From Minisyncoccia bacterium (lineage in GTDB: Bacteria > Patescibacteriota > Minisyncoccia > Phycocordibacterales > PALSA-1337), in NCBI GenBank assembly GCA_044228445.1, contig JBGAUV010000001.1:143827-207826 (forward strand): 64,000 nt of DNA, in the 5' to 3' direction. The notes under the pieces are model-generated. The model was given only the letters and a program-made list of their open reading frames with translations, made no database searches and was not told the DNA's origin. The position numbers were made by a program, and so were the translations under genes. Each line of letters opens with the position of its first letter. The stretch's first letter is position 1. Below are positions 2,995 through 55,126 of the stretch, one piece after another.

Positions 2995-3039
2995 CAAAAA
3001 GACCGCCAGCACAATGTGCTTTGGCGGTTTTTCTTTTTA
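2995..3039 (+). terminator. Rho-independent terminator (copy 2; one mismatch versus 972..1012)
   Basis: aaagACCGCCAgcacaatgtgctTTGGCGGTttttcttttt immediately 3' of the ABC exporter. Confidence 0.6.
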
Positions 3040-3042
3040 TTT

Positions 3043-3087
3043 TGTGCGCCTAGTTGGAATCGAACCAACGACCCACTCCTTAAAAGG
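3043..3087. repeat. attR-like 45-bp direct repeat, identical to the 3' portion of tRNA-Lys at 14087..14131
   Basis: tgtgcgcctagttggaatcgaaccaacgacccactccttaaaagg matches the tRNA-Lys gene from the acceptor 3' end through the anticodon stem; sequence diverges right after. Confidence 0.85.
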
Positions 3088-3266: not shown

Positions 3267-4199
3267 CTATCCAAATGATAGCTTGTCTATATCTTCTCCC
3301 ATGGATTCAGTTCTCATGGAACGAATGTATTTCATTGTCATTAAAATACTGGTATGACCCAACAGTTTTTGTATCTTGAAGGCGCTTACATTGTTCTCGT
3401 CGAGTTTGCAGGCAAAAGTATGTCGAAACATGTGGAGGTGTAGTTTGACCCCCGACTTTTTTATAAGAGCATTTGTCCAGTGTTTTAAACCTTGACGGCT
3501 CAATCCCTTGTCTCCTTTGTTGGAGGCTATCAAACATTCCGTTCGTAAGCCGAGCGCCTCCCTTGCTTCAAAGTACTCCTGTATGTGTAAGAGTAGAGTG
3601 GGGTGAATTTTGAGCTTCCTAGTAATCTTGGATTTCGAGGTTTCTCCTCTTATCGTCATGACAGCTCTATCCTTGTTAAAATCAGAAACACGTAGAGATA
3701 TAAATTCACCCTTTCTTATTCCCAGAAATAATAAAAGACTCACCATCATAGTATCCCGTCGCCGGATAAATGAGTTACTCGATTTTAGTACGATTGCGCT
3801 ATAAATTTTTTGAATATCAGAATCTTCTATTTTTCGAAAATCATCATACTTTACGCTAGGTGGTCTTATGTCATTTAAAGGATTAACAGATATACAACCT
3901 TTTTTCTCTAGCCAATTAAAAAATACATTCAATTTACTCCACTGCGTTTTAATAGTTGAGTTCTTTACTCCTTTCTTTATTTTATTTTTTCCGACTATTC
4001 TCGTTCGAGTCTGGATTCGTTTGAAAAACTCTATAAGCATTTCGGTGCTTAAAAACTTAAGTGTAGAAATTTCTGGCATTATTTTTAAAAAGAGATTGAA
4101 TACAGCTCTATAACCCCTGAGCGTTTCAGGGCTTAGTCGTGTAGAGTATTGCATTACATCCTCAAACTCATTAAAGAGTTTTCGTAGATCATTCTCCAT
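3267..4199 (-). CDS. Tyrosine-type site-specific recombinase/integrase
   Basis: C-terminal catalytic region ...HLHMFRHTFACKL...LLGHTSILMTMKYIRS (R..H..R..Y); N-terminal SAM-like core-binding domain. Confidence 0.9.
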   Translation of the reverse strand: MENDLRKLFNEFEDVMQYSTRLSPETLRGYRAVFNLFLKIMPEISTLKFLSTEMLIEFFKRIQTRTRIVGKNKIKKGVKNSTIKTQWSKLNVFFNWLEKKGCISVNPLNDIRPPSVKYDDFRKIEDSDIQKIYSAIVLKSSNSFIRRRDTMMVSLLLFLGIRKGEFISLRVSDFNKDRAVMTIRGETSKSKITRKLKIHPTLLLHIQEYFEAREALGLRTECLIASNKGDKGLSRQGLKHWTNALIKKSGVKLHLHMFRHTFACKLDENNVSAFKIQKLLGHTSILMTMKYIRSMRTESMGEDIDKLSFG

Positions 4200-4783: not shown

Positions 4784-5170
4784 CTACTTGAAGTCCTCGG
4801 TGGTCGGCTTGTGTCGCCGGCCCATTCGAGGGTTGGTCCAGAAGCCCTGCTTGGGATCGAAGGGGAACACGAAGCATTCGACCATTGCCTTCGGAAAGTG
4901 CTCCTTGAGCGTTTTCCCGAGGCGTTCGGCCAAACGATTGCGAACCTCTGCGGTCCGTTCCGGCTTTTTGAATAGGCCGGTCACTTCGATGATGATCTCG
5001 GTTCCAAGACCAAACTTCATCATGTCGGGCGGAAAGAGAACTGTCATCGAATGCTTGCCTTTTAGGCCAAGCTCGGGGACACCCTCAACGGCTTTGACGA
5101 TGCCTTCGAAGACCTGGTTGAGCTTACGCTCAGTGGACTTCGGAAGGCACCAAATTTTGATTATGGGCAT
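4784..5170 (-). CDS. Tautomerase-family protein (tandem 4-OT/MIF-like halves, Pro1)
   Basis: Begins MPIIKIW...; second half IIEVTGLFKKPERTAEVRNRLAERLGKTLKEHF resembles a 4-oxalocrotonate tautomerase unit; ~55% GC. Confidence 0.5.
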   Translation of the reverse strand: MPIIKIWCLPKSTERKLNQVFEGIVKAVEGVPELGLKGKHSMTVLFPPDMMKFGLGTEIIIEVTGLFKKPERTAEVRNRLAERLGKTLKEHFPKAMVECFVFPFDPKQGFWTNPRMGRRHKPTTEDFK

Positions 5171-5174
5171 GCGG

Positions 5175-6032
5175 TTATCCCTTTTCTTTTGTTGATGGTT
5201 GAGGTTTCTTTGCCAGCCACTGACTCAAGTACCACGCTCCGAAAAGCGAGATAGCAACGCCAGTCCACTGAACAAATGTGAGGTGTTCTCCGAGCATGAA
5301 GTATGCCCCGATGATGACCGCAGGAGTTTCCCCCTGAGCTAAGACACTGGCTTCAGTTATTCGAAGGTTCTCAAAGGCCAGCATGTTTGCTATCCAATAG
5401 AGAAAACCTCCGACGAACGCAAAGCCGAGAAGCAGAACTGTAAGCTTGGGAGTCATGGTGCTGATCAAGGGCGTATTAACGCTTAAGATCAGTCCAAGTG
5501 TTCCCATGCCAATCCCTGCAAAAAACCCTTTCTGCAAAGATGTAGTTTTCGCTTTTGCGAACAACTCGTACAGGACGCCGCTCATTACTGTTCCGAAAAC
5601 ACTCCAGACGAATCCTTCCCATTGGAAGAGTCCACCCTTGCGTGCAATCAGCACTCCGCCGAGCATAAGCACAAGGCCGATGATTGAAGCCTCTGAAATC
5701 TTTCGTCCCAGAAATAAACTGATGGCGAAATTAATAAGAGGTGTCGCGGTAATGATGATGATCGTGGGACCTGCGCCCCAATGCCGGATACCCTGGAAAA
5801 GTCCCAGCGTTGCAAATGGCAGCGTGATTGCGATCAGCCAGGTGTATTTGTCCACCTTGCCGATAACTCCACGGAGTCCAATGAATGCCGCGATGGTAGT
5901 CATGAATCCACGGAATATCATGAGTTGTTCCGGAGTGAACATGTGAAGGACGTTGACGAACGGGAGGGCGAGCCCTGCTGTAAGCCAAATCCCAACTACT
6001 CCGAAAAGACCGATAAAAGTCTTTGGTTTCAA
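5175..6032 (-). CDS. EamA/DMT-family transporter (10 TM, drug/metabolite exporter)
   Basis: Two internally repeated 5-TM halves with glycine-rich helices typical of EamA; GC-rich. Confidence 0.8.
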   Translation of the reverse strand: MKPKTFIGLFGVVGIWLTAGLALPFVNVLHMFTPEQLMIFRGFMTTIAAFIGLRGVIGKVDKYTWLIAITLPFATLGLFQGIRHWGAGPTIIIITATPLINFAISLFLGRKISEASIIGLVLMLGGVLIARKGGLFQWEGFVWSVFGTVMSGVLYELFAKAKTTSLQKGFFAGIGMGTLGLILSVNTPLISTMTPKLTVLLLGFAFVGGFLYWIANMLAFENLRITEASVLAQGETPAVIIGAYFMLGEHLTFVQWTGVAISLFGAWYLSQWLAKKPQPSTKEKG

Positions 6033-6182
6033 GGTGCACCCTCCTTTCTTGGTTAAGCTTTAAGTCAATGAACTGCTAACTCGACCAAAATACCATGGAT
6101 TATTGACTATGGCAAGTTTTTATGCTAGTTTAAGCACAGAATTTCTGAACGAAAAAACAATCAAAAACGAAAGGACTTTGTC

Positions 6183-8054
6183 ATGAAAAAACAGCATTGG
6201 ATCATCCCGCTTCTCTTGGTGGCATTCATCAGGGCGGAATTCACCACAGTCCAGGCCTACTCGGCTTGGGACCAGTCGCAGGTCACGTATGATGCCTCTC
6301 GGGGTGTTTACGTCGATCACTACAAAATCCCTTTGGACAATTTCATTGCAGCAGGTGCGGCCAGTAACCCTGACCAAGCCAAAGAAATCGCTGCAATGTA
6401 TAACGGTCCTCGGGACATTCCGGCGAAGCGAAAGCTCGTCGTGAAGTTTCGGACAGACGTGTTCCGTAAGGAAGAGAACTACGCATGCGCAAGTATGATG
6501 TTTCTCACCAAGCCTGTCTCGAAGCGTCGTCTCGTTCTCGTGAACGTCGAACAGACAATTAACGAGAATATCCCAACTGACGATCGTCAGTATCGGGCCT
6601 GGCCTCATCTCGGACTTCTCTTTGTGGGCACAGCTGCTCAAGAAGAAGGCTGGGAGGTAGTCATGTGGGACGAGCTCGTCAAAGGCTTCGCGCCGATGGA
6701 GCAGCTCGTTCAGCCAGGTGACGTTGTTGGTTTCAGTTGTGTTGTGACAGGAATGGAACGTAGCATTGAGTTGGCTCGGAAAGCAAAGGAACTTGATGCT
6801 CGGTATGTGATCGTGGGAAATGATTCCGCGATCTTCCGAGCAAACCAGATTCTAGCGCTGCCCGACAAGCCGGTTGATGTTGTGTTCACTTCGAATAGCC
6901 TCACGGCCATTCGGAGATTCTTCCGAGAGATTGAAAACGCAAATCTCGAATCGCTGCAAATTCCTGGTGTCCAAGTGACATTGGGGCAAGTGCCGCAATC
7001 GAATGAGCGTGATCGTCTCTTGGTGGATCTTTCCATTCGCAAGCGCGACAAAGCTGAAGGACGGTTTGAAAACGACGACGTGTTCGTTGTTCCGAAGCTC
7101 GATCTCTATCCGCACTGGAATGAGGTCTGGTCCAACTACCGCGCGACGTTCGGACACAAGCACAGTAATCCTGATACGGTGAAGAACGGCATGAGCCTCT
7201 TCGCCCAGGGTTGCACCCGAACTCGTGGAAGTGATGTTTGCAGCTACTGCACCATCTACGGCGTTGCGGACATCCGCATGCCACAGAGGGAATACCTTCG
7301 TCGGACCGCTGAGGCCTACAAAGCTTTCGGCATCGACATGGTGTTCAACGTAACTGACAGCGTCTACGAGATGGGCGGTGTGGCTAAAGCGCTCCAGGAG
7401 CTCGGTATTACCTGGAATGCAATGACCATCTACGGTCGATCGCAGGGAATAACTCAGAACCCAGGTCTTCTCGAACAATGGCAACGAGTCGCAACAGAGC
7501 GACTCCTCGTCAACGTTGGGATGGACTCGGGAGACGACAAACTTCTGCGAGAAGGAGTTGTGAAATCCTCGATCAACAGAAAGAGGACTCGCCTTGAGGA
7601 AAACCAAGAGGCGGTGCGACTCATCCGGCAAGCCGGTGCGCATCTTCACTACTCACTCATCTTCGGAACGCCCGGCGAGACATTGGAGACCTGCGAAAGC
7701 AGTATCCGGTTTCTCGAGTGGACGATTGCGACACTCGGTCACCAGTTGGACATCTGCGAAACAGACATCTACTGGCTTAACTTCGGGTCACCTGCAAGCA
7801 AGGTGTTCCATGACTATTCGGAAGCGCAGCGACTTGCTGCGATGGCCGGAAAGTCGATCTCCAGAGAGGAGTGGTACGAAAACTTCGCTCGTCACCAAGA
7901 GGCACTCGTCGTGCCCGAGGCGACGGAAGAAGCCTGGTACCGCCACTTCACGAAGATCGATCTTGCGACTGCGCAGGCTTATAACCAGCGTTGCGTCGAG
8001 ATCATGGCTCGCCATAACGGCAGCATTCGAGGTCGTGCGTACAAGCCGATCTAA
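6183..8054 (+). CDS. B12-binding-domain radical-SAM-like enzyme with atypical cysteine motif and a signal-peptide-like N-terminus
   Basis: PHLGLLFVGTAAQEEGWEVVMWDE...GFSCVVTGMERSIELARKAKELDARYVIVGNDSA resembles the cobalamin-binding domain of class B rSAMs; cysteine cluster is C-x8-C-x2-C (GCTRTRGSDVCSYC) instead of CxxxCxxC; N-terminus MKKQHWIIPLLLVAFIRAEFTTVQA/YS looks like a Sec signal; ~55% GC. Confidence 0.5.
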   Translation: MKKQHWIIPLLLVAFIRAEFTTVQAYSAWDQSQVTYDASRGVYVDHYKIPLDNFIAAGAASNPDQAKEIAAMYNGPRDIPAKRKLVVKFRTDVFRKEENYACASMMFLTKPVSKRRLVLVNVEQTINENIPTDDRQYRAWPHLGLLFVGTAAQEEGWEVVMWDELVKGFAPMEQLVQPGDVVGFSCVVTGMERSIELARKAKELDARYVIVGNDSAIFRANQILALPDKPVDVVFTSNSLTAIRRFFREIENANLESLQIPGVQVTLGQVPQSNERDRLLVDLSIRKRDKAEGRFENDDVFVVPKLDLYPHWNEVWSNYRATFGHKHSNPDTVKNGMSLFAQGCTRTRGSDVCSYCTIYGVADIRMPQREYLRRTAEAYKAFGIDMVFNVTDSVYEMGGVAKALQELGITWNAMTIYGRSQGITQNPGLLEQWQRVATERLLVNVGMDSGDDKLLREGVVKSSINRKRTRLEENQEAVRLIRQAGAHLHYSLIFGTPGETLETCESSIRFLEWTIATLGHQLDICETDIYWLNFGSPASKVFHDYSEAQRLAAMAGKSISREEWYENFARHQEALVVPEATEEAWYRHFTKIDLATAQAYNQRCVEIMARHNGSIRGRAYKPI

Positions 8055-8117: not shown

Positions 8118-8639
8118 TTAAGCTTGTCATGCACGGTGTGACTATACAGTCTCGGGGAAAGAAGTGGGTGAGAAACTCGATATTAATCTTAGTTTCTCCT
8201 TTACACCCGTCATATACTCCAGATCTGTGAAATGACCATAATCTATTTTCCTGTTTTCTTAACTTCGTAACCATTGTGAATGGCCACTTTAGTTGTTCCT
8301 CCAATACCCAACCATGTTCCGACTATCAGTATAGCTAGACCACCTACGATTGAGATCATAAGTTCGCTCATGTGCAGGATTATAGAGGAAAGGAAATACA
8401 AGGGTACTGGTAAATATGTAAAATACATTGTATTATTTTAGAACAATTAAATATAGAAGTAGCCTAACCCCCCAAGCAATTGGCGGCATGGCGAAGAAGT
8501 CCTATCGAGCACAGAAACCCGTCACGGGTCGCTTGATAGGCCGTATAGGGAAACTTATACGAGAGGCTTCGAGCCTCTACCGTGGCGGATTTCTGTTCAC
8601 GCCTCGGATTACAAGCCCTATCAAGCTAAAAATATCAAT

Positions 8640-8876
8640 ATGTTTGGAAAAGATTTTGTGTGCCTCAATTGTGGTACTGTGGGGAAGCGTAAGTTGCAGG
8701 TAAGGGGTAATTTAGTATTAGAAATACTGCTTTGGTTCTTCTTTCTTATTCCAGGTATTATTTATTCAATATGGCGCCACGCCTCTACTAAACAGATATG
8801 CAAAGCTTGTGGTAGTCTTAATATGGTTCCAGTCGATTCTCCGAAAGGACAAGAGGTGGTGAAGAAAAATAAATAA
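8640..8876 (+). CDS. Zinc-ribbon membrane protein (two CxxC pairs flanking one TM helix)
   Basis: CLNCG...TM(LVLEILLWFFFLIPGIIYSIW)...CKACGS; stop abuts the thermonuclease start. Confidence 0.4.
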   Translation: MFGKDFVCLNCGTVGKRKLQVRGNLVLEILLWFFFLIPGIIYSIWRHASTKQICKACGSLNMVPVDSPKGQEVVKKNK

Positions 8877-8877
8877 C

Positions 8878-9738
8878 ATGAAAAAACTATTTTTGTTTGG
8901 GGCGAGTAGCGTCTTTGTCCTTTTTCTTACTGTACTTTTCTTTTCCTCGACACCTACGGAACAGGGGATTAAGGCACTGGAGAGTAAGTCTACACTTGTA
9001 AGCGAAGCGACAATTCCTTCCGTTGCACCAATTGCAGAAGGTCCGAAGGTTTATTCTGTGGTAAGTGTAATTGATGGTGATACTTTGAAAATAAGTATGA
9101 ATGGTAAAGAGGAGACTCTTCGTCTGATCGGTATTGATACCCCGGAGACAGTTGATCCACGAAAGACGGTGCAGTGTTTTGGAAAAGAAGCATCAAACAA
9201 AGCAAAGGAGTTGCTGGTCGGTAAGAGGGTTCGCATTGAAGTTGATCCTACACAAGGGGAACGAGATAAGTATGATCGTCTGCTCGTTTACATTCATCGT
9301 GAGGATGGGCTTTTTTACAACAAACATATGATCGAGCAGGGATATGCTCATGAGTATACTTACAACACCCCCTACATATATCAAGCTGAATTCAAAGCTG
9401 CTCAAGCTAGAGCTCGTACGAACCAGAAAGGACTATGGTCTCCAGCAACCTGTAATGGAGATACAACATCTAGCCCGATTGTTTTGACTCCTCCGCCCAC
9501 ACAAAGCCCCGCGGTAGCCCCTACACCTGCACCTACAGTATCACCTGTTCAAGAGCCTGCATCTGCTCCTCAATCAGTGGGGAAGTATTACACTTCTTCT
9601 TACGGCAGTTCCAAATACTACTACCCAGAAGCGTGTGGTGGTTGGAAAAGTCTCTCGCCGAAGTATTTAAAATCCTTTGACTCGCTAGAGGCGTTACTCG
9701 CCACATATTCGCGAACAAAAAGCCCTCAGTGTCAGTAG
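8878..9738 (+). CDS. Secreted/membrane-anchored thermonuclease (staphylococcal nuclease fold) with Pro-rich linker and C-terminal Cys-containing Ada-like metal-binding motif
   Basis: N-terminal TM/signal; SNase motifs VIDGDT and RLIGIDTPE; C-terminus KYYYPEAC...FDSLEALLATYSRTKSPQC. Confidence 0.85.
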   Translation: MKKLFLFGASSVFVLFLTVLFFSSTPTEQGIKALESKSTLVSEATIPSVAPIAEGPKVYSVVSVIDGDTLKISMNGKEETLRLIGIDTPETVDPRKTVQCFGKEASNKAKELLVGKRVRIEVDPTQGERDKYDRLLVYIHREDGLFYNKHMIEQGYAHEYTYNTPYIYQAEFKAAQARARTNQKGLWSPATCNGDTTSSPIVLTPPPTQSPAVAPTPAPTVSPVQEPASAPQSVGKYYTSSYGSSKYYYPEACGGWKSLSPKYLKSFDSLEALLATYSRTKSPQCQ

Positions 9739-9898
9739 GGCAGTATTCAGGATATTTCTGACCCATTAGTTTCTTTGTGAAGTCTTCATTCTGAAATAAC
9801 GCGCTTCGCATCCTGGATTCCCGAGTCTTTTAAAAAGATGACCCTTGAATTCCAGATTTAAGGACCATTCACGCAGGTGTGTGACCCTTTCTGGTTAC

Positions 9899-10417
9899 CT
9901 AGATTGGATCAGGTTCGTGTATTTTTCCCTGAACTCTTTCTCTCGCTTCTTCAAATGATTTGTTGTCAGTGGGAGGAGAGTATCGGACGATATCGTTATA
10001 TCGATCATGTATGTGTCTTGTCGCAGTTTCGAGTTCTTTATCGGTCATTGCTTTCGAAAACGTATCTCTAAGAGACCTTACATCCTGTTTGAGAGTCGTA
10101 AAATTCTTTGCGGCATTCAAGTGATCGTAATATTCCTTGAGTGGATTTAGTACGCTACCAACTGCGGCGACGACCGCAGAGATGACGCCTAGCCAAACGA
10201 CCCATTCAGGTGCATCTTTTATTCCAATATATGTACCAGATACAGCAGCAATAACAGCCGGAATCGTCTGGAATCTTGTGAGTCGTCGTCGTTGTTTATC
10301 CGCGATGACATGATGAGTTTCAGCAGTATAAACGCAATTTTGATATATCACCTCGCATTCTTCTGTGTATGTTTCTTTCATGATAGTGGAATTAATTCTC
10401 CGAATATTTTTCTCCAC
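9899..10417 (-). CDS. 2TM effector with SLATT-like architecture (predicted membrane-disrupting partner of the SMODS cyclase)
   Basis: Soluble N-terminal region, two adjacent TM helices (IPAVIAAVSGTYIGI / WVVWLGVISAVVAAVGSVL) and a conserved C-terminal helix; overlaps the upstream cyclase gene by 40 nt in an operon. Confidence 0.55.
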   Translation of the reverse strand: MEKNIRRINSTIMKETYTEECEVIYQNCVYTAETHHVIADKQRRRLTRFQTIPAVIAAVSGTYIGIKDAPEWVVWLGVISAVVAAVGSVLNPLKEYYDHLNAAKNFTTLKQDVRSLRDTFSKAMTDKELETATRHIHDRYNDIVRYSPPTDNKSFEEARERVQGKIHEPDPI

Positions 10418-11304
10418 GCTAGGTGTTTTCCCGCATCGGTTGAGGCGGTAAGAGCGTCACGACTATGGTATTTCAAATATTCCAATGCTTGTAAAACCTC
10501 TAGTTTTGTTGCAAGGTCTATTCGAATTACCGGAGAATTACTCCCTGGGATTGAGAGGTGATTATCCAGATAAGATTCGATATTGTGGATGAATCCAGCC
10601 ACAATTGCAGGGTACGTCACAAGTATAGCGTTCTTTTTGCAGCCTGCAATGATCTCGGGTACGAGCTTCGTGGCCATTATTTCAATTGGGAATGACTTGA
10701 GAGAAGGGAAGTATTCTCGCCGGATTGCCTTCATCATTTTTATTACTGGAGTAAGAATTCCACCCGTTTGGTTATTTACAGCCGAAATGTATTCGGCGTC
10801 ATGATCGTAGTCAGCCAATTCCCATGTTCCAAGGCTGTTTGGTATCCAGTAACCTCTACCTTTCGGACTATGAATAATTCCGTTTGGAGAATGTCCAATA
10901 TTATCGATGTATGCAGGTACAATTTCTACTTTGACGTTATTTGCATATTCGAAAGTGACGGTGGGGTGATCTTGTTGTGGTGACATGGCACCGTACCGTT
11001 CGCTTTCTCGCACGATTGAATGAACATGATCCATCGCCATTTGAGCGGTAACACCGCCTGGACCCCAACGATCAAATTGACCGAGTACAACCAGGATATC
11101 AATATCGAAAGCGTCGTCTTCTCGTGGCTGTATTCTCGTCTTTCGATAGTTGTGGAGAGAACCAATCAATTTGGTGTCTTTGATGTTTTGACCATTATTT
11201 TCAATAACGCCCCTGACAGCGTTGTGCTGCCGTGATATGGTTTCACTAAACGTGTCGGTCAGTTCAAGATTCGCTTTCAGTTTTAAAAAGGTATCAGTGA
11301 TCAT
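10378..11304 (-). CDS. SMODS/CD-NTase-like nucleotidyltransferase (cyclic oligonucleotide synthase, CBASS-type)
   Basis: Pol-beta NTase signature G-S-x14-D-x-D: LIGSLHNYRKTRIQPREDDAFDIDILVV; ~300 aa single domain; directly followed by the 2TM effector. Confidence 0.7.
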   Translation of the reverse strand: MITDTFLKLKANLELTDTFSETISRQHNAVRGVIENNGQNIKDTKLIGSLHNYRKTRIQPREDDAFDIDILVVLGQFDRWGPGGVTAQMAMDHVHSIVRESERYGAMSPQQDHPTVTFEYANNVKVEIVPAYIDNIGHSPNGIIHSPKGRGYWIPNSLGTWELADYDHDAEYISAVNNQTGGILTPVIKMMKAIRREYFPSLKSFPIEIMATKLVPEIIAGCKKNAILVTYPAIVAGFIHNIESYLDNHLSIPGSNSPVIRIDLATKLEVLQALEYLKYHSRDALTASTDAGKHLAWRKIFGELIPLS

Positions 11305-11305
11305 T

Positions 11306-11578
11306 TTAGAGGTAGTTTTTTAACCAAGTTACAGTATCGGAATCGATACTCTTCGTAGCCCAATCGCATTTTGTGATGTCAATTGCAATAAGCTTGTCAT
11401 TTGTATCTAAATGAAGCTTGGCCGCATCTCGCACTTGTCCGGCGGTGTAGGAGGTTTTTAAAAGCCAGACAGATTCGACGGGTCTTGCATAGCCACTATA
11501 GGTTTTAAGATGCTTCCATAGTTCGGAGTAGTCCTTTCCGGGCTTTCGAAGATCGTATGATATGAGTATTGTGTTCAT
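11306..11578 (-). CDS. Small alpha/beta protein with Cas2/VapD-like sequence pattern; first gene of the SMODS operon
   Basis: ILISYDLRKPGKDYSELWKHLKTYSGYARPVESVWLL follows the YD[IL]..(K/R)..L..yG.R...SV[FW] pattern of Cas2-fold proteins; stop is 2 nt before the cyclase start. Confidence 0.3.
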   Translation of the reverse strand: MNTILISYDLRKPGKDYSELWKHLKTYSGYARPVESVWLLKTSYTAGQVRDAAKLHLDTNDKLIAIDITKCDWATKSIDSDTVTWLKNYL

Positions 11579-11708
11579 GTGTTATGATTTGGTGAATAAA
11601 TAATCAAAGGGTGAGGTTCCCAACTGGGAAGATTACTCTCTGTTGAATATAGTTTATCAAAATGATTAATAATTTGTCAAATCACTTTGAAAAAGGTATG
11701 ATATCTAC

Positions 11709-12050
11709 ATGAAAAATGAATCAAATAAGGCTTCCTCAATAGGAGGGCAAATTAGACAGGCGCGCGAAGAAATGAATATGTCGCAATTGGACTTGGCTAA
11801 GGCGACAGGATTTGAGTCAGCCACTGCCATTTCTCTCATGGAAAGCGATCAGAGAAAAGTGACAATCGATACTTTACAGAAACTCGGGGATGTTCTTCAT
11901 AAAGATATAAAATATTTTCTTGGGGCAGAAGAAAAGCCAACAGTGACTACCGAGTTTGCGTTAAGAGCAGATCCTCATCTAAACAAAGAAGACAAAGAGG
12001 CACTTCTTCATCTTATTGATTTGGCTAAGAAGCGTAAAAATGGAAAATAA
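11709..12050 (+). CDS. XRE-family HTH transcriptional regulator (ImmR-like)
   Basis: IRQAREEMNMSQLDLAKATGFESATAISLMESDQRKVTIDTLQKLGDVL is a Cro/C1-type HTH. Confidence 0.8.
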   Translation: MKNESNKASSIGGQIRQAREEMNMSQLDLAKATGFESATAISLMESDQRKVTIDTLQKLGDVLHKDIKYFLGAEEKPTVTTEFALRADPHLNKEDKEALLHLIDLAKKRKNGK

Positions 12051-12540
12051 CATTGATGACCTCGGTCCTCGTAAAAAATTCGCAAAAGGTCTCGCAGAGA
12101 AGCTTTTAAAAGATGTTGGAATTACGGAAGTTCCTGTTTCGTTGCAGATAGTAATAGAGTATCTTCAAACCCAGTATGACCTCGATGTGCGAAAAGTCTC
12201 GTTGAGTAATGCCGTCTCCGGATTACTAGTAACTTGTAGAGACGTCGATGGAGAATATTCCACGATCATTTTTAATGAAAATCATCCTTGGTGCAGGAAG
12301 AGATTTACGATTGCACATGAAATTGGTCACCTATTGATGGGTCATACTTGTAATAAAAATGATCCCACAGCCACTTATAATGAAAAGGAAGCAAATTGCT
12401 TTGCGGCGGAACTTCTCGTGCCATGTAAGATTTTAAAAAAGACCTTTAAAACTGTCACTAAAATTCCTGACCTATCAAAACTTTTTAGGGTTAGTGCTGA
12501 AACGATGGGATATCGAATAATGGAATGTCGTCTAATTTAA
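12040..12540 (+). CDS. ImmA/IrrE-family metallopeptidase (COG2856; anti-repressor protease)
   Basis: HEIGHLLMGH (HExxH) and downstream EANCFAAELLVP; start chosen at internal ATG (MENNIDD) overlapping the XRE gene by 11 nt. Confidence 0.75.
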   Translation: MENNIDDLGPRKKFAKGLAEKLLKDVGITEVPVSLQIVIEYLQTQYDLDVRKVSLSNAVSGLLVTCRDVDGEYSTIIFNENHPWCRKRFTIAHEIGHLLMGHTCNKNDPTATYNEKEANCFAAELLVPCKILKKTFKTVTKIPDLSKLFRVSAETMGYRIMECRLI

Positions 12541-12542
12541 AG

Positions 12543-13043
12543 TTAATCAGTAGAGATAATCTTAGGCATCAGTCTCGCCCATTTTTTCGTACTGCTCTCT
12601 TTTGATGCTGGAATCATCATTAGCTCAGGCTTTTCAAAACTAGTTGATTCTTCTATAAAAAATAAAGCCGAGTCCCATTTCATAATGGTATTTGCTGCTG
12701 CAATTCGTTCGCTTTGTGTGGTGGAGCGGACCTCACCGAAGCTGGTTATCTGCTTTCCTTTGACTATATCAACCAATTCATCCGTAAGAAGGCGGTGGCG
12801 CTCCCTAAGTGCAGTCAAGCGTGCCTCCCTTGTCTGTCTACCCACTAATTCAATATTTTCTTTTCGAACTTTGGATACGAGACGTGAGACATAGTGCCAA
12901 TCAAGAGTACCACCATTTACATTTCTATATCCCACAAGGTAGAGCTGAACCCGTAGTTTTTGGACCGAGATAAGTGGATGAAGAGCCAACTCATCTCTTA
13001 TTGTACTTTTTATTCCGTCTTCTACTTCTGGTTGTTTTCTCAT
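12543..13043 (-). CDS. Hypothetical protein (island cargo, immediately downstream of the integrase gene, overlapping it by 4 nt)
   Basis: ORF only; no recognisable motif. Confidence 0.3.
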   Translation of the reverse strand: MRKQPEVEDGIKSTIRDELALHPLISVQKLRVQLYLVGYRNVNGGTLDWHYVSRLVSKVRKENIELVGRQTREARLTALRERHRLLTDELVDIVKGKQITSFGEVRSTTQSERIAAANTIMKWDSALFFIEESTSFEKPELMMIPASKESSTKKWARLMPKIISTD

Positions 13044-13969
13044 TTAAGTTCGTGGTTATTCGCGGTTATTAATGGCGTAATGTCGTTGAGAGGGTGCTTT
13101 ACCATCTGCGACCTCAGGTGTTCTGCACTTGCTGCCAAGTAGATCGTTGTAGTCTTTATATCACTATGACCCATCATTTTTGAGAGGGAATAGATGTCAC
13201 AGCCTCCTTCGAGCATTAAGGTGGCGAAGGTGTGTCGTAGCTTATGAACGCTGAACGCTGTCCCTGAAGCCTGCCGCATCTGCGCCACCAGTCTTTTTAA
13301 ACCATTTGCAGTGAATCCTGTATCTCTTCGAAGGGAAGAAAAGAATTCTGGATTTACTTTATTGAGTCTCTTTCTTTCCTCCACGTACTTCTTCAGACTT
13401 TGAGCAAGGGTGTAGCTTATTGGCACGATCCGGTCTTTCGCTCCTTTGCCTTGCCTCACAAAGAGAGTGAGATTGTCCAGATCGATATCTGTATATTTTA
13501 AATTCAAGAGTTCCTGCTTACGGAGACCAGCAAAAATGAAGGTTGCGAATATGGCGTGGTTTCTATAGCGAAGGAATTTATACTCATAGGGGTAGTTATA
13601 GACTATCTCGAGAAGCCTGAGAGTGCTTTGCTGTGAGAGTTTGGGAGGTAACCGTTTCTCCATCTTTGGTTTTTCAATATTCAAGATGGGATTTTTCTCC
13701 ATGTAGCCTTGCTTTACGCACCAGCGAAAGAAAACTAGAAGTGATTTGTGGTAGACGATATAAGTATTTACAGTCCACTTCCGCTCTGTACGGCCGCGAT
13801 AAAATAAAGCTCGTATATTCTCTTCATTCACATCATTTAAATTCGTGATTCCTGAAAACTTACTGAAGCACCTCGTTACATATCTGTATCTCCGTATGGT
13901 GTCTTTGGAATAACCTCGGATTGATAGGGAGTAGTCACAGAATTTCTGCGACAAAATTTCAATATCCAT
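13040..13969 (-). CDS. Tyrosine-type site-specific recombinase/integrase (tRNA-proximal)
   Basis: ...HKLRHTFATLMLEGGCDIYSLSKMMGHSDIKTTTIYL... (R..H..R..Y); 5' end lies 118 bp from the tRNA-Lys 3' end. Confidence 0.9.
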   Translation of the reverse strand: MDIEILSQKFCDYSLSIRGYSKDTIRRYRYVTRCFSKFSGITNLNDVNEENIRALFYRGRTERKWTVNTYIVYHKSLLVFFRWCVKQGYMEKNPILNIEKPKMEKRLPPKLSQQSTLRLLEIVYNYPYEYKFLRYRNHAIFATFIFAGLRKQELLNLKYTDIDLDNLTLFVRQGKGAKDRIVPISYTLAQSLKKYVEERKRLNKVNPEFFSSLRRDTGFTANGLKRLVAQMRQASGTAFSVHKLRHTFATLMLEGGCDIYSLSKMMGHSDIKTTTIYLAASAEHLRSQMVKHPLNDITPLITANNHELK

Positions 13970-14087
13970 GTTTTTTCTCGACGAATACTTATCCCCAGTT
14001 TATTTTGACCCTACGGCCTGTTCACCGCAGGAGGTGGTCGTTCAAAATCTCTCTTTTTCCGAATCAGCCCTAGAAATATAACGAATG

Positions 14088-14160
14088 TGCGCCTAGTTGG
14101 AATCGAACCAACGACCCACTCCTTAAAAGGGAGATGCTCTACCAACTGAGCTATAGGCGC
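14088..14160 (-). tRNA. tRNA-Lys (anticodon UUU)
   Basis: Reverse complement GCGCCTATAGCTCAGTTGGTAGAGCATCTCCCTTTTAAGGAGTGGGTCGTTGGTTCGATTCCAACTAGGCGCA; anticodon loop CUUUUAA; good acceptor/D/T arms. Confidence 0.9.
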
Positions 14161-14336
14161 ATTTAATTTACTTACTAACTTTAAACCATACTACCATAGT
14201 TTGTTCTGGTCCTACCAAAACAGCTATAGGCGCATTTATTTATTTGTAAAAATACAATTTAACTTCTATAACCGTCGCTTGTCTACCAAAACAGCTACAG
14301 GCGCATTGAAACACAACAAAAAAGAATATACCTTTT

Positions 14337-30878: not shown

Positions 30879-30953
30879 GGTGGCTATAGTTTAGTGGTAA
30901 AACCTCGGTCTGTGGATCCGAAGTTGTGGGTTCGATTCCCACTAGCCACCCCA
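30879..30953 (+). tRNA. tRNA-His (anticodon GUG) with extra 5' G
   Basis: GGTGGCTATAGTTTAGTGGTAAAACCTCGGTCTGTGGATCCGAAGTTGTGGGTTCGATTCCCACTAGCCACCCCA. Confidence 0.8.
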
Positions 30954-32531
30954 TTCGAGAATCAGTTGTTGAAAAGCGATATTTCGCGCGTCAACAGAGC
31001 TGTATTCTCTCAGTCCTAACCTCTCAAATTCAGCCTTGAATTCAGGGTATACCTTTTTGATTGGCTGTAACCACTCATTGCCGGTGATAAAGACTTTTCC
31101 GCCCTTTATGTAGAAGTTCTGGCCTAATGCCGAGAATATTTCACGCTTTCTTTGAAGATCACCGACAATAAACTCCTTTCGAGCATAACAAGCAAAGCTA
31201 AAGACTTGTTCGGTAAGGTCCAGCCACTTTGAAGCACGTCCCTCGGTTTCTCGGAGTTTTGCCTGGAGTCTCGCAATCTTATCTTTCAGGATGTCACGCT
31301 CTTTGACGAATGTCTCGTCGTCAATAAGATCGCGATAACGCATCTTGGTTAAGTTATCGAGTTCGGTTTGCGACTCTACAACAGTCTTGTGTTGCATCTC
31401 ATAGATTTTAGTACGGTCCTCAATTTCTTTATCATTATTACGATTGAGAGCCTCAATAGCCCAGATCTGAAACTCGGGGAGTATGGTGTACTCCTCAAGT
31501 AAAAGTTCAATCTGTGTTTCTAAATCATCTAGTCTGATCGGGTTTCTTCTTGAACATCGCTCAACACCTTTCTTGTTTCCGCCACAGTGGTAGTAAACAT
31601 AATTTTTCATTTGACCAGTGCTTTTGATTTTCTTCATCCTTTCGGTGGCGGTATACATCGAACCACACAAACCACAGCGAATAAGCCCGGTGAAAGCGAA
31701 CTCATGAGTTTTAGCTCTTGGTTTTCCGGTCCTATCAAAGATAGCCTGGACCTGATCGAATTCCTCAAGAGTGATCATCGGCTTATGATTGCCTTTATAT
31801 ATTTTCTTACCCCAATGGAAGTTGCCGGTGTAGAAAATATTATTAAACATTTTGTAAATCACGCTCGGTGCCATCTCAACTCCACCACTGTGCTTACTCT
31901 TAAGGGAACGATAGCCCCACTCTTTACTTGCTATCTCTGCAATCTTTTTCGGAGTGTAACTACCAGTAAGCATGAGGTCCCACATTTTACGAACTAGGTG
32001 AAAACGTTCTGGATCGGGAAGGATTGTGTGCTCAAGTCGCTCGTTGATATAGCCAGCCGGTGCCTTTGAAGGGAACCATCCACGCTCTGCCTTGCCATGC
32101 ATGCCTCGCTTGGTATTCTTGCGAAGTTCGATAATGAACTGATTTGCCATTCCACTCTCAACACTAAAAAGCAGGACGTTATCATCTGGCAAATATTCTC
32201 GTTCCATTGTTTGGATAGATTGAATGATTCCTTTCTGAAGCATCCAGCTTAGCTTTCCGCTATCAATAGGATTGCGTGCTAGGCGATTGATTTGCCAGCA
32301 GAGAATTCCTTTTGCTTCGCCTTTTTCAATACGCCGAAGCATATCATTAAAGATTGGTCGCCCGGGTTGCTTGGCCGATTTTGCCTCGGTCAGTATTTCT
32401 TTGATTGAAATACCAAGAGAGTTGGCTCGCTCTTTGAGCCTATTAACCTGATCCTCGATTGATTGCTCTTGTCGGTCCTCTGATTCAGAAGACTTGCGAG
32501 CATACATGAAATATTCAACATTTGTAGCCAT
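30942..32531 (-). CDS. Large serine recombinase/integrase (resolvase catalytic domain + recombinase domain + Zn ribbon)
   Basis: N-terminus YARKSSESEDRQEQSIEDQ (catalytic Ser); C-terminal Cys cluster CGLCGS...YYHCGG...C; stop overlaps the 3' end of tRNA-His by 12 nt. Confidence 0.9.
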   Translation of the reverse strand: MATNVEYFMYARKSSESEDRQEQSIEDQVNRLKERANSLGISIKEILTEAKSAKQPGRPIFNDMLRRIEKGEAKGILCWQINRLARNPIDSGKLSWMLQKGIIQSIQTMEREYLPDDNVLLFSVESGMANQFIIELRKNTKRGMHGKAERGWFPSKAPAGYINERLEHTILPDPERFHLVRKMWDLMLTGSYTPKKIAEIASKEWGYRSLKSKHSGGVEMAPSVIYKMFNNIFYTGNFHWGKKIYKGNHKPMITLEEFDQVQAIFDRTGKPRAKTHEFAFTGLIRCGLCGSMYTATERMKKIKSTGQMKNYVYYHCGGNKKGVERCSRRNPIRLDDLETQIELLLEEYTILPEFQIWAIEALNRNNDKEIEDRTKIYEMQHKTVVESQTELDNLTKMRYRDLIDDETFVKERDILKDKIARLQAKLRETEGRASKWLDLTEQVFSFACYARKEFIVGDLQRKREIFSALGQNFYIKGGKVFITGNEWLQPIKKVYPEFKAEFERLGLREYSSVDARNIAFQQLILEWGG

Positions 32532-52771: not shown

Positions 52772-55126
52772 ATGTCGCACATTTCTTCCAATACAGCATA
52801 CGATTCAAAAATAATAGCTTTTGATCTTGATGGTACTCTCTCAAAGAGTAAAGAAAAAATTTCCCCTAGTATATCGTCATTATTAAACTCTCTTAGTAAA
52901 AAAAGAAAGATATTGATAATATCTGGAGGATCTTTTGAACAATACAATAAACAATTAATTCCTTTTATTGAACCCAATGAAAACTTTATTTTATTGCCAC
53001 TTGAGGGTAGTGAAAGGTTTGAGTATTCAAGAAAAACAGAAAAATGGGAAATGACTTTCAAAAAAGAATTTCCAAAAGATATTAAAAAGGATGTAGTAAA
53101 TGTTTTAAATAAAATAATAAATTCAGGTAAATATGATATACCAAGTATTCACGAAGGATCATACATAGAAGACAGAGATACAGAAATAGCCTTTTCTGCT
53201 TTAGGTCAAAATGCTAATATAAAAGAGAAAGAGAATTGGGATAAAGATCATAAAAAAAGGGAAAAAATAAAAAAAGAGATTGAAAGTGAAATTCCAAATG
53301 TTGCTGTAACAATAGGTGGTACTACAACAATAGAAGTTCTGACAAAAGGTTGGAGTAAAGCTGTAGGCCTAATTTATTATATAAAACAACATAACTATAA
53401 TAATAACGATATATTATTTATTGGCGATGCAATATTTCCTGGAGGTAATGATTATTCAATTTTTGAGAAAAATATTCAATGTATAAAAGTGAATAGTCCA
53501 CAAGATACAGAAATGATACTTGAAAAAATTTTATTAATAAACAGCACACCAAAATCTAATAATCCAATTGCGTATTTTTCTATGGAATATGCTCTAGATC
53601 ATAATCCTTTAATGTATGCAGGAGGTTTGGGTGTATTATCTGGAGATTATTTATTACAAGCAAGTAAGGATAAAGTTCCTTTATTTGCTTTTGGTTTGAA
53701 ATATAGTGACGCTCCACCAGATGATTTTTTTGAATTAAAAGATAAAGAAGGAAATATTGTTATTTTTTCAATACCTATTGAACAAAGTATAGTAAAAGCA
53801 AAAGTATGGCAGAGAAATATTGATAAAGATGGAATAGTAAAGCTTTACCTTTTTGATACTGATGTAAAAGAAAATAATGAAAATGATAAAAAAATAACTA
53901 GAAATCTTTATGATCCTATTTTTTTATCTAGATTAAAACAACAAATAGTTTTAGGAATTGGTAGTGTTAAACTCATTAAATATTTGGAAATTAATCCAAG
54001 TATTTACCATTTAAATGAAGGACATACAAGTTTTGTTGGTTTTGCTATTTTAAATGAAATGCCTATTTCAGAATGTACAAAAATAGTTGGAACAAAACAT
54101 ACTATTCTTCCAGAGTCAGGTTTATTTATAAAATATTTTGATTTAAAAAATATTCTTGAGAAATATTGTGAAAGTAATAAAAAAGATATTAATAATCTAT
54201 TTGATATGGGTAAATATGAAGGGGATCCAGAGTTGTTTTCTACTACAAAGTTTTTAATGAAAATATCAATAAGATCAAATGGTGTAAGTATTCCACATGT
54301 TGATTTTGAAAAAAAAGCTCACCCAAATAGTAAATTAATTCCAATAACCAATGGTGTGTATATAGATCGTTGGCAATCAAAAGAATTAAAAAATATTAAT
54401 TCAATAACAAATGAGGAATTGGCAAATATAAGAAAGAAGCTACGTTCAGTTATGATTGATTTTGTAAAAGAGAGAACAGGAATAACATTAAATAAAAATA
54501 TCTGCACACTTGTTTGGGCAAGAAGATTTGCTATGTATAAGAGACCATATTTATTATTTTCTGATGAAGAAAGAATAATAAATATTCTTTTAAATAAACA
54601 CTATCCAATGCAAATAATTATTTCAGGCAAACCTCATGAGGCAGATATAGAAGGACAAAAGATTATGAATAAAATTATTGAACTTGAAAAGAACCCAAGA
54701 ATAAAAGGAAGGTTGGCATATATAAAAGGTTATTCAACAGAAATATCTGAAAACTTAGTAAAGGGTGCTGATATATGGATAAATACACCTGAAATGGGTA
54801 AAGAAGCTTGTGGAACAAGTGGTATGAAATCAGGATTAAATGGAGCGGTACAATTAACAGTTCCAGATGGTTGGGCGGGTGAGGTTAATTGGAATGGAAT
54901 GGGTTATGTATTACCACAGGATGATCCAAAAGAAATGCTTTATGATTTACTCGAAAATGAAATCGCTCCTAGCTTTTATGAAAAATCTCTTGATAAAAGT
55001 GAAAATAAAGAATACGTTTCTGAAAAGTGGTTACAAATGTCTAGAAGTACAATTGAATTAGTAATGAAAAACTACACCACAGATAAAATGTTATCTGAAT
55101 ATATCCAAAAGCTGTATCATTTGTGA
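52772..55126 (+). CDS. HAD-like phosphatase domain fused to alpha-glucan (glycogen) phosphorylase
   Basis: N-terminal IIAFDLDGTL (HAD motif I) and FIGDAIFPGGND; C-terminal phosphorylase EACGTSGMKSGLNGAVQLTVPDGWAGE (PLP site). Confidence 0.75.
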   Translation: MSHISSNTAYDSKIIAFDLDGTLSKSKEKISPSISSLLNSLSKKRKILIISGGSFEQYNKQLIPFIEPNENFILLPLEGSERFEYSRKTEKWEMTFKKEFPKDIKKDVVNVLNKIINSGKYDIPSIHEGSYIEDRDTEIAFSALGQNANIKEKENWDKDHKKREKIKKEIESEIPNVAVTIGGTTTIEVLTKGWSKAVGLIYYIKQHNYNNNDILFIGDAIFPGGNDYSIFEKNIQCIKVNSPQDTEMILEKILLINSTPKSNNPIAYFSMEYALDHNPLMYAGGLGVLSGDYLLQASKDKVPLFAFGLKYSDAPPDDFFELKDKEGNIVIFSIPIEQSIVKAKVWQRNIDKDGIVKLYLFDTDVKENNENDKKITRNLYDPIFLSRLKQQIVLGIGSVKLIKYLEINPSIYHLNEGHTSFVGFAILNEMPISECTKIVGTKHTILPESGLFIKYFDLKNILEKYCESNKKDINNLFDMGKYEGDPELFSTTKFLMKISIRSNGVSIPHVDFEKKAHPNSKLIPITNGVYIDRWQSKELKNINSITNEELANIRKKLRSVMIDFVKERTGITLNKNICTLVWARRFAMYKRPYLLFSDEERIINILLNKHYPMQIIISGKPHEADIEGQKIMNKIIELEKNPRIKGRLAYIKGYSTEISENLVKGADIWINTPEMGKEACGTSGMKSGLNGAVQLTVPDGWAGEVNWNGMGYVLPQDDPKEMLYDLLENEIAPSFYEKSLDKSENKEYVSEKWLQMSRSTIELVMKNYTTDKMLSEYIQKLYHL

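Follow-up and report, generated by a model that had tools for sequence, protein, structure and literature searches.

The stretch of DNA analysed here (the window) comprises 64,000 nucleotides of the genome of a Minisyncoccia bacterium and carries, on its minus strand between positions 9899 and 11578, a compact operon of three genes: a 90-aa leader gene (ORF-A, 11306..11578), a gene for a 308-aa nucleotidyltransferase of the SMODS type (10378..11304) and a gene for a small membrane protein of the SLATT_4 family (9899..10381). The latter two very probably form the core of a type I cyclic-oligonucleotide-based anti-phage signalling system (CBASS), an abortive-infection module carried as cargo by an island of ~11 kb at a tRNA-Lys gene in a Patescibacteria-like host. 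Facing the operon across a spacer of 130 bp (11579..11708) are two plus-strand genes, which encode a CapH-like repressor of the XRE family with a helix-turn-helix (HTH) domain (113 aa, 11709..12050) and a short, CapP/ImmA-like zinc metallopeptidase of the M78 family (166 aa, 12040..12540). That this pair regulates the transcription of the CBASS genes is proposed with less confidence than the identity of the CBASS core.

An initial annotation, made from the sequence alone, had placed three minus-strand open reading frames (ORFs) at 11578..11306 (90 aa), 11304..10378 (308 aa) and 10417..9899 (172 aa, the longest ORF), and these are indeed found there. The overlap of 40 nt that it reported between the SLATT and cyclase genes is, however, an artefact of the longest ORF, which opens with a GTG at 10417. 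An ATG at 10381 overlaps the TGA of the cyclase by 4 nt (ATGA), and the resulting 160-aa form occurs in the public protein collection (on an NCBI contig). Furthermore, the SLATT relatives, 158 aa in length, can be aligned from residue 1 onwards, and their genes likewise overlap the cyclase genes by 4 nt. For these reasons ATG 10381 is the most likely start of the gene, and a length of 160 aa is more likely than one of 172 aa. At the other end of the cyclase gene, the stop codon of ORF-A lies 1 nt from the cyclase ATG. The ORF-A, cyclase and SLATT genes leave next to no space between them and must be transcribed together. The operon had also been called minimal, a description that does not hold, as the divergent CapH/CapP-like regulator pair had been overlooked.

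The cyclase and its membrane effector

The 308-aa protein had been taken for a SMODS cyclase, and both profile searches and structure prediction bear this out. The protein matches Pfam SMODS (PF18144) with 53.8 bits (E 3.5e-14, cutoff 26.5) and the best of the PADLOC CBASS cyclase models at 1.5e-30, and its only sequence matches in the PDB are nucleotidyltransferases of the CdnC/CdnD type (E 1e-5 for CdnD). An AlphaFold (AF2) model built on 41 relatives has a mean predicted local distance difference test (pLDDT) value of 94.3 and a predicted template modelling score (pTM) of 0.91. When this model is compared with the PDB by Foldseek, the top 47 matches are all bacterial cGAS/DncV-like nucleotidyltransferases (CD-NTases), namely CdnD, CdnB, CdnG, CdnC, CdnE and DncV, with template modelling (TM) scores of ~0.73–0.79; the best match is CdnD 6p82 (E 2e-14, TM score 0.73–0.75). 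The expected pol-beta/CD-NTase motif, LIGSLHNYRKTRIQPREDDAFDIDIL, is present, and its key residues are nearly invariant among the 41 relatives: G48, D67 and D69 are found in all of them and S49 in 40. D67 and D69 align with the DIDI motif of CdnD, matching the two positions that are mutated in PDB entry 6p8j (D62N/D64N, according to its title). The third acidic residue, which the initial annotation had sought in the E of VKVEIVPAY, is this very residue, E127, and is kept in 40/41 relatives. By inspection only, E127 appears equivalent to the Asp in the CdnD stretch VSVDAVPAF. A Glu at the third catalytic position is a trait of the whole clade and not a lesion. Taken together, the Pfam, PADLOC and PDB matches, the AF2/Foldseek comparison and the residue conservation support the assignment of the protein as a CD-NTase.

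The protein encoded downstream had been described as a SLATT effector with two transmembrane helices, and it passes the SLATT_4 thresholds of both Pfam (PF18186, 38 bits, cutoff 27) and NCBIfam (NF033632, 72.6 bits, cutoff 55). In PADLOC it is matched by the model for CBASS effectors with two transmembrane segments (4e-18) and by that for SLATT proteins associated with reverse transcriptases (2.3e-24). The membrane segments were judged from hydrophobicity values. The first comprises residues ~37–54 (FQTIPAVIAAVSGTYIGI; mean Kyte-Doolittle value ~1.4, calculated by hand) and the second residues 60–78 (Kyte-Doolittle value 2.25); the two are joined by the five-residue loop KDAPE and are followed by a hydrophilic helical tail.

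The cyclase and effector genes are also found together elsewhere. Of 25 related cyclase loci, collected from genomes and metagenomes, 22 have a gene for a SLATT homolog immediately after the cyclase gene, which makes the pair the conserved functional unit. No Cap2/Cap3 (E1/E2/JAB), HORMA/TRIP13 or QueC/TGT/OGG gene was found with Pfam, PADLOC and NCBIfam among the flanking genes (ORF-A, the HTH and M78 genes and the staphylococcal nuclease gene described below), which places the system in type I. The type I logic of a cyclase and a membrane effector that had been proposed for the locus is thereby upheld. The classification of CBASS into types reportedly goes back to Millman and colleagues in 2020, and SMODS–SLATT pairs are said to have been described by Burroughs and colleagues in 2015. 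SLATT4 is among the listed classes of CBASS effectors (PMC12480259), and SLATT proteins are thought to oligomerise, on binding of a nucleotide signal, into assemblies that breach the membrane (bioRxiv 10.64898/2025.12.03.692087).

Compared with known type I CBASS that use a SLATT or other two-segment effector, the window shares the CD-NTase fold with its GS...DxD...acidic triad, the effector gene directly downstream with its overlap of 4 nt, the SLATT_4 protein of ~160 aa and the lack of ancillary genes. It differs in that the cyclase belongs to a divergent clade with Glu instead of Asp as the third catalytic residue, that the operon contains an additional Cas2-like leader gene, and that the system is carried on an 11-kb tRNA-Lys island in a Patescibacteria-like host. 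There is also a resemblance to type VII Thoeris, which pairs a TIR protein with the SLATT effector ThsH (bioRxiv 10.64898/2025.12.03.692087), since in both a SLATT membrane effector answers a small nucleotide signal. A sister module of the regulators and ORF-A (on the P0001 contig) even has a ThsB-type TIR gene in the place of the cyclase. The signal generator of the window, in contrast, is a CD-NTase and not a TIR domain.

The cyclase family is spread over many phyla. Among 21 genome loci, obtained by scanning GTDB species representatives (a set that does not include the genome of the window itself), five belong to the candidate phyla radiation (CPR), from Saccharibacteria, a Patescibacteria-group metagenome-assembled genome (MAG), Woesebacteria, Uhrbacteria and Liptonbacteria. 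NCBI already names one relative 'SMODS domain-containing nucleotidyltransferase [Patescibacteria group bacterium]'. The earlier statement that such systems are rarely reported in lineages with reduced genomes may hold for the literature, where a full-text search yields four papers with both CBASS and Patescibacteria, the latter named a single time in each, but it does not hold for the sequence databases.

The predicted divergent regulators and the leader gene

The 113-aa protein that is encoded opposite ORF-A matches Pfam HTH_3 at 5.2e-12 and the PADLOC capH profile at 1e-9, in the latter case over positions 2–102 of 103 and thus over its full length. Its gene overlaps that of the peptidase, which starts with ATG 12040; homologs of the peptidase are likewise called as 166 aa. 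The peptidase matches Pfam Peptidase_M78 (7.1e-18) and contains the HExxH motif in the form HEIGH. Its PADLOC capP match has an E-value of 1.5e-23, but extends only over profile positions 5–153 of 242. From its sequence, the protein is a CapP-like or ImmA-like short form and not a canonical CapP.

CapH, a repressor, and CapP, a peptidase, form a pair through which the repression of CBASS is relieved after DNA damage, and their genes typically lie upstream of the CBASS operon in the opposite orientation; ImmR and ImmA are treated as members of the same regulator family (Lau et al., bioRxiv 10.1101/2022.04.27.489752). The window reproduces this arrangement, its genes for an XRE-HTH repressor and an M78 zinc peptidase lying ahead of the defence operon and pointing away from it, and the likeness extends to the full-length capH match and to the peptidase domain of capP with its HExxH motif. 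At 166 aa, the peptidase differs from CapP in its ImmA-like length, having no C-terminal GAF domain and probably no central HTH. With the ImmR/ImmA pairs of ICEBs1 and temperate phages, the locus shares a short M78 peptidase and an XRE repressor near an integrase on an integrated element, and relatives of ORF-A stand beside such modules in the phages phiFL1A and SN8. In ICEBs1, however, ImmR/ImmA controls genes for excision and transfer, whereas the divergent operon of the window has only ORF-A and the CBASS genes. The integrase of the window is, moreover, convergent with the HTH–M78 operon and not co-transcribed with it.

The 130-bp spacer is a putative operator region. By a promoter scan and a search for inverted repeats, it contains back-to-back candidates for sigma-70-like promoters with -35 boxes that overlap at 11674–11680, of the form TTGACA-18-TAAACT with a TG element on the minus strand and TTGTCA-17-TATGAT on the plus strand (10/12 matches each), as well as a palindrome at 11660–11675. 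The promoter core TTGACA-N17/18-TGnTAAAnT is conserved in a related locus, L037, whose module is only ~50% identical at the protein level.

The leader gene ORF-A had been labelled Cas2-like and counted among the CBASS genes; the label stands at the level of the fold, but membership in the CBASS does not, ORF-A being absent from all 25 related cyclase loci. The AlphaFold model of ORF-A (pLDDT 88, pTM 0.80) has the order beta-alpha-beta-beta-alpha-beta-beta-alpha of a ferredoxin-like fold, with the conserved Asp at the end of beta-1 that is taken as a criterion for Cas2. This Asp is part of an essentially invariant Y8-D9-L10 motif at the end of strand 1, and D9, D58 and D61 are near-invariant acidic residues. 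Pfam Cas2 (PF09827) is matched by all seven close relatives and by 33 of 102 broader relatives (best 2.8e-7); ORF-A itself stays under the threshold, with 15.2 vs 23.8 bits, and has no NCBIfam match. Its full-length match is to phrog_1090 (E 1.1e-22, residues 1–89 vs profile positions 1–87 of 90), to which all 102 relatives belong as well and which has no annotated function and no model of its own in Pfam or NCBIfam. With a full HMMER search by profile, 4,532 representative sequences are retrieved at E<=1e-3. The view of ORF-A as a rare orphan, suggested by a word-indexed search that returned six relatives, was accordingly an artefact of sensitivity. An alignment of seven sequences used as query gave five related loci, all of them viral.

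A role as Cas2 in CRISPR adaptation was considered and rejected, as there is no CRISPR-like repeat array in the 64-kb window and no cas1 in the island, and the scores stay below the family thresholds. The island genes that were scanned matched other families or none, Cas1 not being among them, and no cas gene was seen in the related ORF-A contexts that were read. Sequence searches of the PDB with ORF-A, as a single sequence and as a profile, gave chance matches only; comparison with the viral folds of BFVD gave nothing at E<0.1; and Pfam gave no match to DUF2188 or DUF3892. In the literature, no paper was found that links a Cas2-like protein with CBASS or CapH/CapP. The 99-aa gene that precedes the cyclase gene of L009 and another gene of 90 aa in L005/L006 were compared with ORF-A as possible relatives, and neither proved similar to it. 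ORF-A thus differs from Cas2 and from the stand-alone Cas2-like proteins VapD, BPSL1038 and GhoS in lying below the Pfam and TIGRFAM Cas2 thresholds, in having no cas1 or CRISPR array nearby, and in forming its own large family, found in phage immunity regions and ahead of diverse defence operons. Judged from model and sequence, it is Cas2-like at fold level and not Cas2 proper.

The contexts of its relatives are varied. As leader genes, they lie 0–20 nt upstream of their cargo (45 nt in L078), which besides the CBASS of the window is a ThsB-type TIR gene with the same M78–HTH pair upstream (P0001 contig), an MBL-fold PDC-M48B/LmuA-like protein (L037), Shedu SduA (L056), the Res subunit of a type III restriction system (L060), Ymh-type HEPN proteins, which match PADLOC PD-Lambda-3_B (L052, L058, L062), or, behind a small HTH gene on an Acinetobacter plasmid, a type I restriction-modification system (L078). 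The L037 module is 54% (M78), 47% (HTH) and 46% (ORF-A) identical to that of the window. The divergent M78–HTH arrangement is found in at least seven loci (the window, the P0001 contig, L037, L048, L054, L063 and L066), and an XRE-HTH gene lies within ~1.1 kb of the ORF-A relative in at least 14 of 39 related loci, many of the contigs being too short for a full count. Roughly one relative in two is a solo gene. Such copies lie ~0.5 kb from an immunity module of XRE repressor, ImmA and integrase in the temperate phages phiFL1A and SN8, and on 5-kb plasmids of the ColE1 type the relative stands alone. These contexts are best explained if ORF-A is a cargo-independent leader that accompanies regulator modules of the HTH type, and not a CBASS component.

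Several further gene pairs were observed near ORF-A relatives. On CPR-like chromosomes (L001/L002, L005–L007), the relative is likewise a solo gene and is divergent, over ~200–250 bp, from a gene of 257–259 aa with HTH_3 and SocA_Panacea domains, which overlaps an ORF of 113–117 aa without a family; the two resemble a toxin–antitoxin pair of the PanA type. In Staphylococcus phage SN8 (L013, 5927-6765), a DUF4231 gene, related to SLATT, overlaps a ThsB-like TIR gene (PADLOC ThsB 6e-13) between the ImmA-like protease and the integrase, a pair that resembles type VII Thoeris as a prophage moron. In Pasteurella phage Pmp11 (L014, 5487-6996), a 'Beta protein' is encoded near the ORF-A relative (PF14350; PADLOC beta 3.6e-115, PD-Lambda-2_C-like). 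The 131-aa ORF that precedes it shows weak similarity to the SLATT protein of the window (phmmer E 1.4e-3), and the two may be a phage-borne defence pair.

The tRNA-Lys island and other features of the window

The location of the operon on a mobile island, as initially annotated, is confirmed by three features. A perfect direct repeat of 45 bp, for which no chance match is expected, links the 3' half of tRNA-Lys(UUU) (14087..14160, minus strand, called by ARAGORN and Rfam) with the far end of the island: the proximal attachment (att) repeat occupies 14086–14130 and the distal one 3043..3087. The tyrosine integrase of the island (13040..13969, minus strand; Pfam Phage_integrase 6.7e-30) adjoins this tRNA gene, the integration target. 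Furthermore, the GC content is 38–56% inside the island and ~30% outside it. The island segment recurs as an identical copy in a sequencing run of independent origin (L015), where each of the eight proteins is 100% identical. Between the M78 gene and the integrase lies a minus-strand ORF of 166 aa (12543..13043), which overlaps the integrase gene by 4 nt, is also found in the L015 copy and matches no family in Pfam or PADLOC.

The island has a composite appearance, suggestive of two elements that fused or became nested. On the minus strand, just inside the distal att repeat, is the gene for a second tyrosine integrase (3267-4199), which has 27% identity to the first. A much more GC-rich block (49–56%) at 4800-8054 contains genes for an EamA-type transporter (5175-6032) and a B12-binding radical-SAM enzyme (6183-8054). 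A full-length LOOT RNA (8461-8578, plus strand; Rfam RF03000, 76 bits vs a gathering score of 46.4) is located between the radical-SAM gene and an ORF for a 78-aa zinc-ribbon/membrane protein (8640-8876), immediately after which comes the gene for a secreted staphylococcal nuclease homologue (SNase, 8878-9738, plus strand). This protein has an N-terminal hydrophobic leader and matches the PADLOC candidate C3a212 'SNc+LTD' at 4e-46; its gene is convergent with the CBASS operon, and it may be another defence or competition gene of the island.

At the borders of the island, two extra units of ~72 nt follow the tRNA-Lys gene (14139-14312). The first ~22 nt of each copy the 5' end of tRNA-Lys (87% and 77% identity over 30 nt), and the remainder has diverged. 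Neither is called as a tRNA by ARAGORN or Rfam, and the units may be decayed tandem tRNA copies or recombination scars at an integration hotspot. Just outside the distal end, two copies of a terminator-like element, a GC-rich hairpin of 43 nt with a T-run (971-1013 and 2997-3039, 98% identical), flank a gene for a 621-aa ABC-ATPase (1118-2983); the second copy ends 4 nt before the distal att repeat.

Further into the window, a gene for a large serine recombinase of 529 aa (30880-32531; Resolvase, Recombinase and Zn_ribbon_recom domains) ends 12 nt inside the 3' end of tRNA-His and opens a region of raised GC content (~40% vs 30%) at ~30–40 kb that is probably a second integrated element or prophage. 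Another GC-rich patch is found at 46–48 kb, within 44–50 kb. At 52772-55126 (plus strand), a native fusion of 784 aa combines a HAD-IIB phosphatase-like domain with an alpha-glucan phosphorylase, an architecture that recurs in relatives from Patescibacteria. The named relatives of this protein come from Patescibacteria, Paceibacterota and Saccharimonadia MAGs; the description of the host as Patescibacteria-like is based on them and agrees with the background GC content of ~30%.

Proposed mechanism, rival explanations and significance

By analogy with characterised members of the families involved, the locus may operate as follows. The 113-aa CapH-like XRE-HTH protein would bind the 130-bp divergent region and keep the expression of the ORF-A/cyclase/SLATT operon, and probably of its own operon, low. 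A stress or infection cue would activate the short ImmA/CapP-like M78 peptidase, leading to cleavage of the repressor and de-repression of the operon. The CD-NTase, with its catalytic residues G48-S49, D67, D69 and E127, would sense phage infection and make a cyclic oligonucleotide. Upon binding of this nucleotide, the 160-aa SLATT_4 protein, a hairpin of two membrane segments with cytoplasmic helices, would oligomerise and breach the membrane, so that the cell dies before phage is released. ORF-A, as a co-transcribed leader, would be a cargo-independent accessory of the regulator module. What the analysis itself shows are the identities of the genes, the fold, the conservation of the catalytic residues, the coupling within the operon, the recurrence of the cyclase–SLATT pair and the structure of the island; repression and its relief by cleavage, nucleotide synthesis, pore formation and the effect on phages are taken from what is known of the families.

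Several observations weigh against this account. The cyclase does not reach the cutoff of the NCBIfam equivalog CBASS_cyclase_b (80.8 vs 200 bits), which marks its clade as divergent. It is 22% identical to CdnD, the nearest solved enzymes being 14–22% identical, and the nucleotide product cannot be inferred for so divergent a clade. The SLATT protein has no recognised nucleotide-sensor domain such as SAVED. E. coli CapP consists of a peptidase (residues 1–141), an HTH (142–182) and a GAF domain (182–288), and binds single-stranded DNA (ssDNA) in a groove between the peptidase and GAF domains (bioRxiv 10.64898/2026.05.16.725639). The 166-aa peptidase of the window lacks the GAF domain and hence half of this groove, so that the published ssDNA-groove sensing cannot apply as such and the trigger is probably sensed differently. 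The scanned region holds seven promoter candidates, no excess over the 6.1 expected from shuffling; the promoter calls therefore rest on their position and on the conservation in L037. No terminator-like site was found in 9600-12200. In addition, the HTH/M78 pair could primarily serve the island.

This last point leads to an explanation in which the pair is the island's own switch of the ImmR/ImmA type, governing induction or excision, and the CBASS occupies an 'early gene' position and is expressed upon induction. Such a switch would differ from the proposed mechanism in the purpose of the regulators and not in the identity of the CBASS genes, and is thus partly compatible with it. The short peptidase (166 aa) without a GAF domain is like ImmA, the integrase is 0.5 kb away, the ORF-A relatives in phiFL1A and SN8 lie next to XRE-HTH, ImmA and integrase modules, and the CapH/CapP study itself places ImmR/ImmA in the same regulator family. 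However, no excision-, replication- or transfer-like gene follows the divergent promoter, only ORF-A, cyclase and SLATT, and the M78–HTH/ORF-A module elsewhere precedes other defence cargo (the MBL-fold protein in L037, the TIR gene on the P0001 contig). An island switch is unlikely on this evidence, although it deserves serious consideration.

Two further explanations concern the operon itself. ORF-A could be an accessory specific to the CBASS, a new 'Cap' protein with a role in sensing infection or in regulating the CD-NTase, which would make the unit a three-gene system. The 1-nt gap to the cyclase ATG, which indicates co-transcription and possibly translational coupling, would fit such a role, as would the conserved Cas2-like fold with near-invariant D9, D58 and D61, which suggests an enzyme or a nucleic-acid binder. 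Its absence from the 25 related cyclase loci (with the SLATT partner retained in 22 of them), the unrelated cargo behind its relatives (TIR, Shedu SduA, Ymh-HEPN, MBL/LmuA-like, type III Res, type I restriction-modification) and the solo state of about half of them make this quite improbable. The cyclase–SLATT pair might alternatively serve mainly as an addiction or stabilisation module of the island, acting by post-segregational killing or exclusion of competitors and not in anti-phage immunity of the host. In principle, a mobile element can be stabilised by a toxic abortive-infection effector, and the pair does belong to such an element, an island whose att repeats are perfect and of which another sample contains an identical copy. 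No antitoxin-like partner of differential stability is present, unless ORF-A fills that role, and the same pair is found in many chromosomal contexts outside islands, beside restriction-modification genes (e.g. in L011), as is typical of defence islands. An addiction module is therefore very improbable, and a CBASS under the control of a CapH/CapP-like pair remains the preferred explanation.

As a CBASS, the locus adds little, being one more well-catalogued two-gene system, with a cyclase family that several CPR MAGs already contain; what makes it a modest variant of the known is the regulator without a GAF domain, together with the promiscuous Cas2-like leader. It does show ultra-small Patescibacteria-like genomes acquiring abortive-infection immunity on islands that target tRNA genes, and the GAF-less CapP/ImmA-like peptidase offers a natural minimal variant for asking what activates such switches.

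The only part that merits further work is the ORF-A leader, which turns up ahead of no fewer than seven kinds of defence cargo that are unrelated in mechanism (CBASS, TIR, Shedu, Ymh-HEPN, MBL/LmuA-like, type III Res and type I restriction-modification) and in phage immunity regions without having a curated family or a literature of its own. This small protein of ~90 aa could be an unrecognised, cargo-independent front-end that forms, with an XRE-HTH protein and often a short ImmA-like peptidase, a portable control cassette before interchangeable toxic cargo, an idea that builds on the observed genomic association but is rather improbable. Speculatively, ORF-A could act as a GhoS-like post-transcriptional brake, a small nuclease or nucleic-acid binder that limits the expression of the genes downstream; for the solo copies of temperate phages and small plasmids, an equally speculative role would be that of tools for superinfection or anti-defence. 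Should ORF-A prove to be a general control element, it would add to bacterial immunity a regulatory layer that is new and shared between systems, and would be a useful marker in the search for new defence genes.

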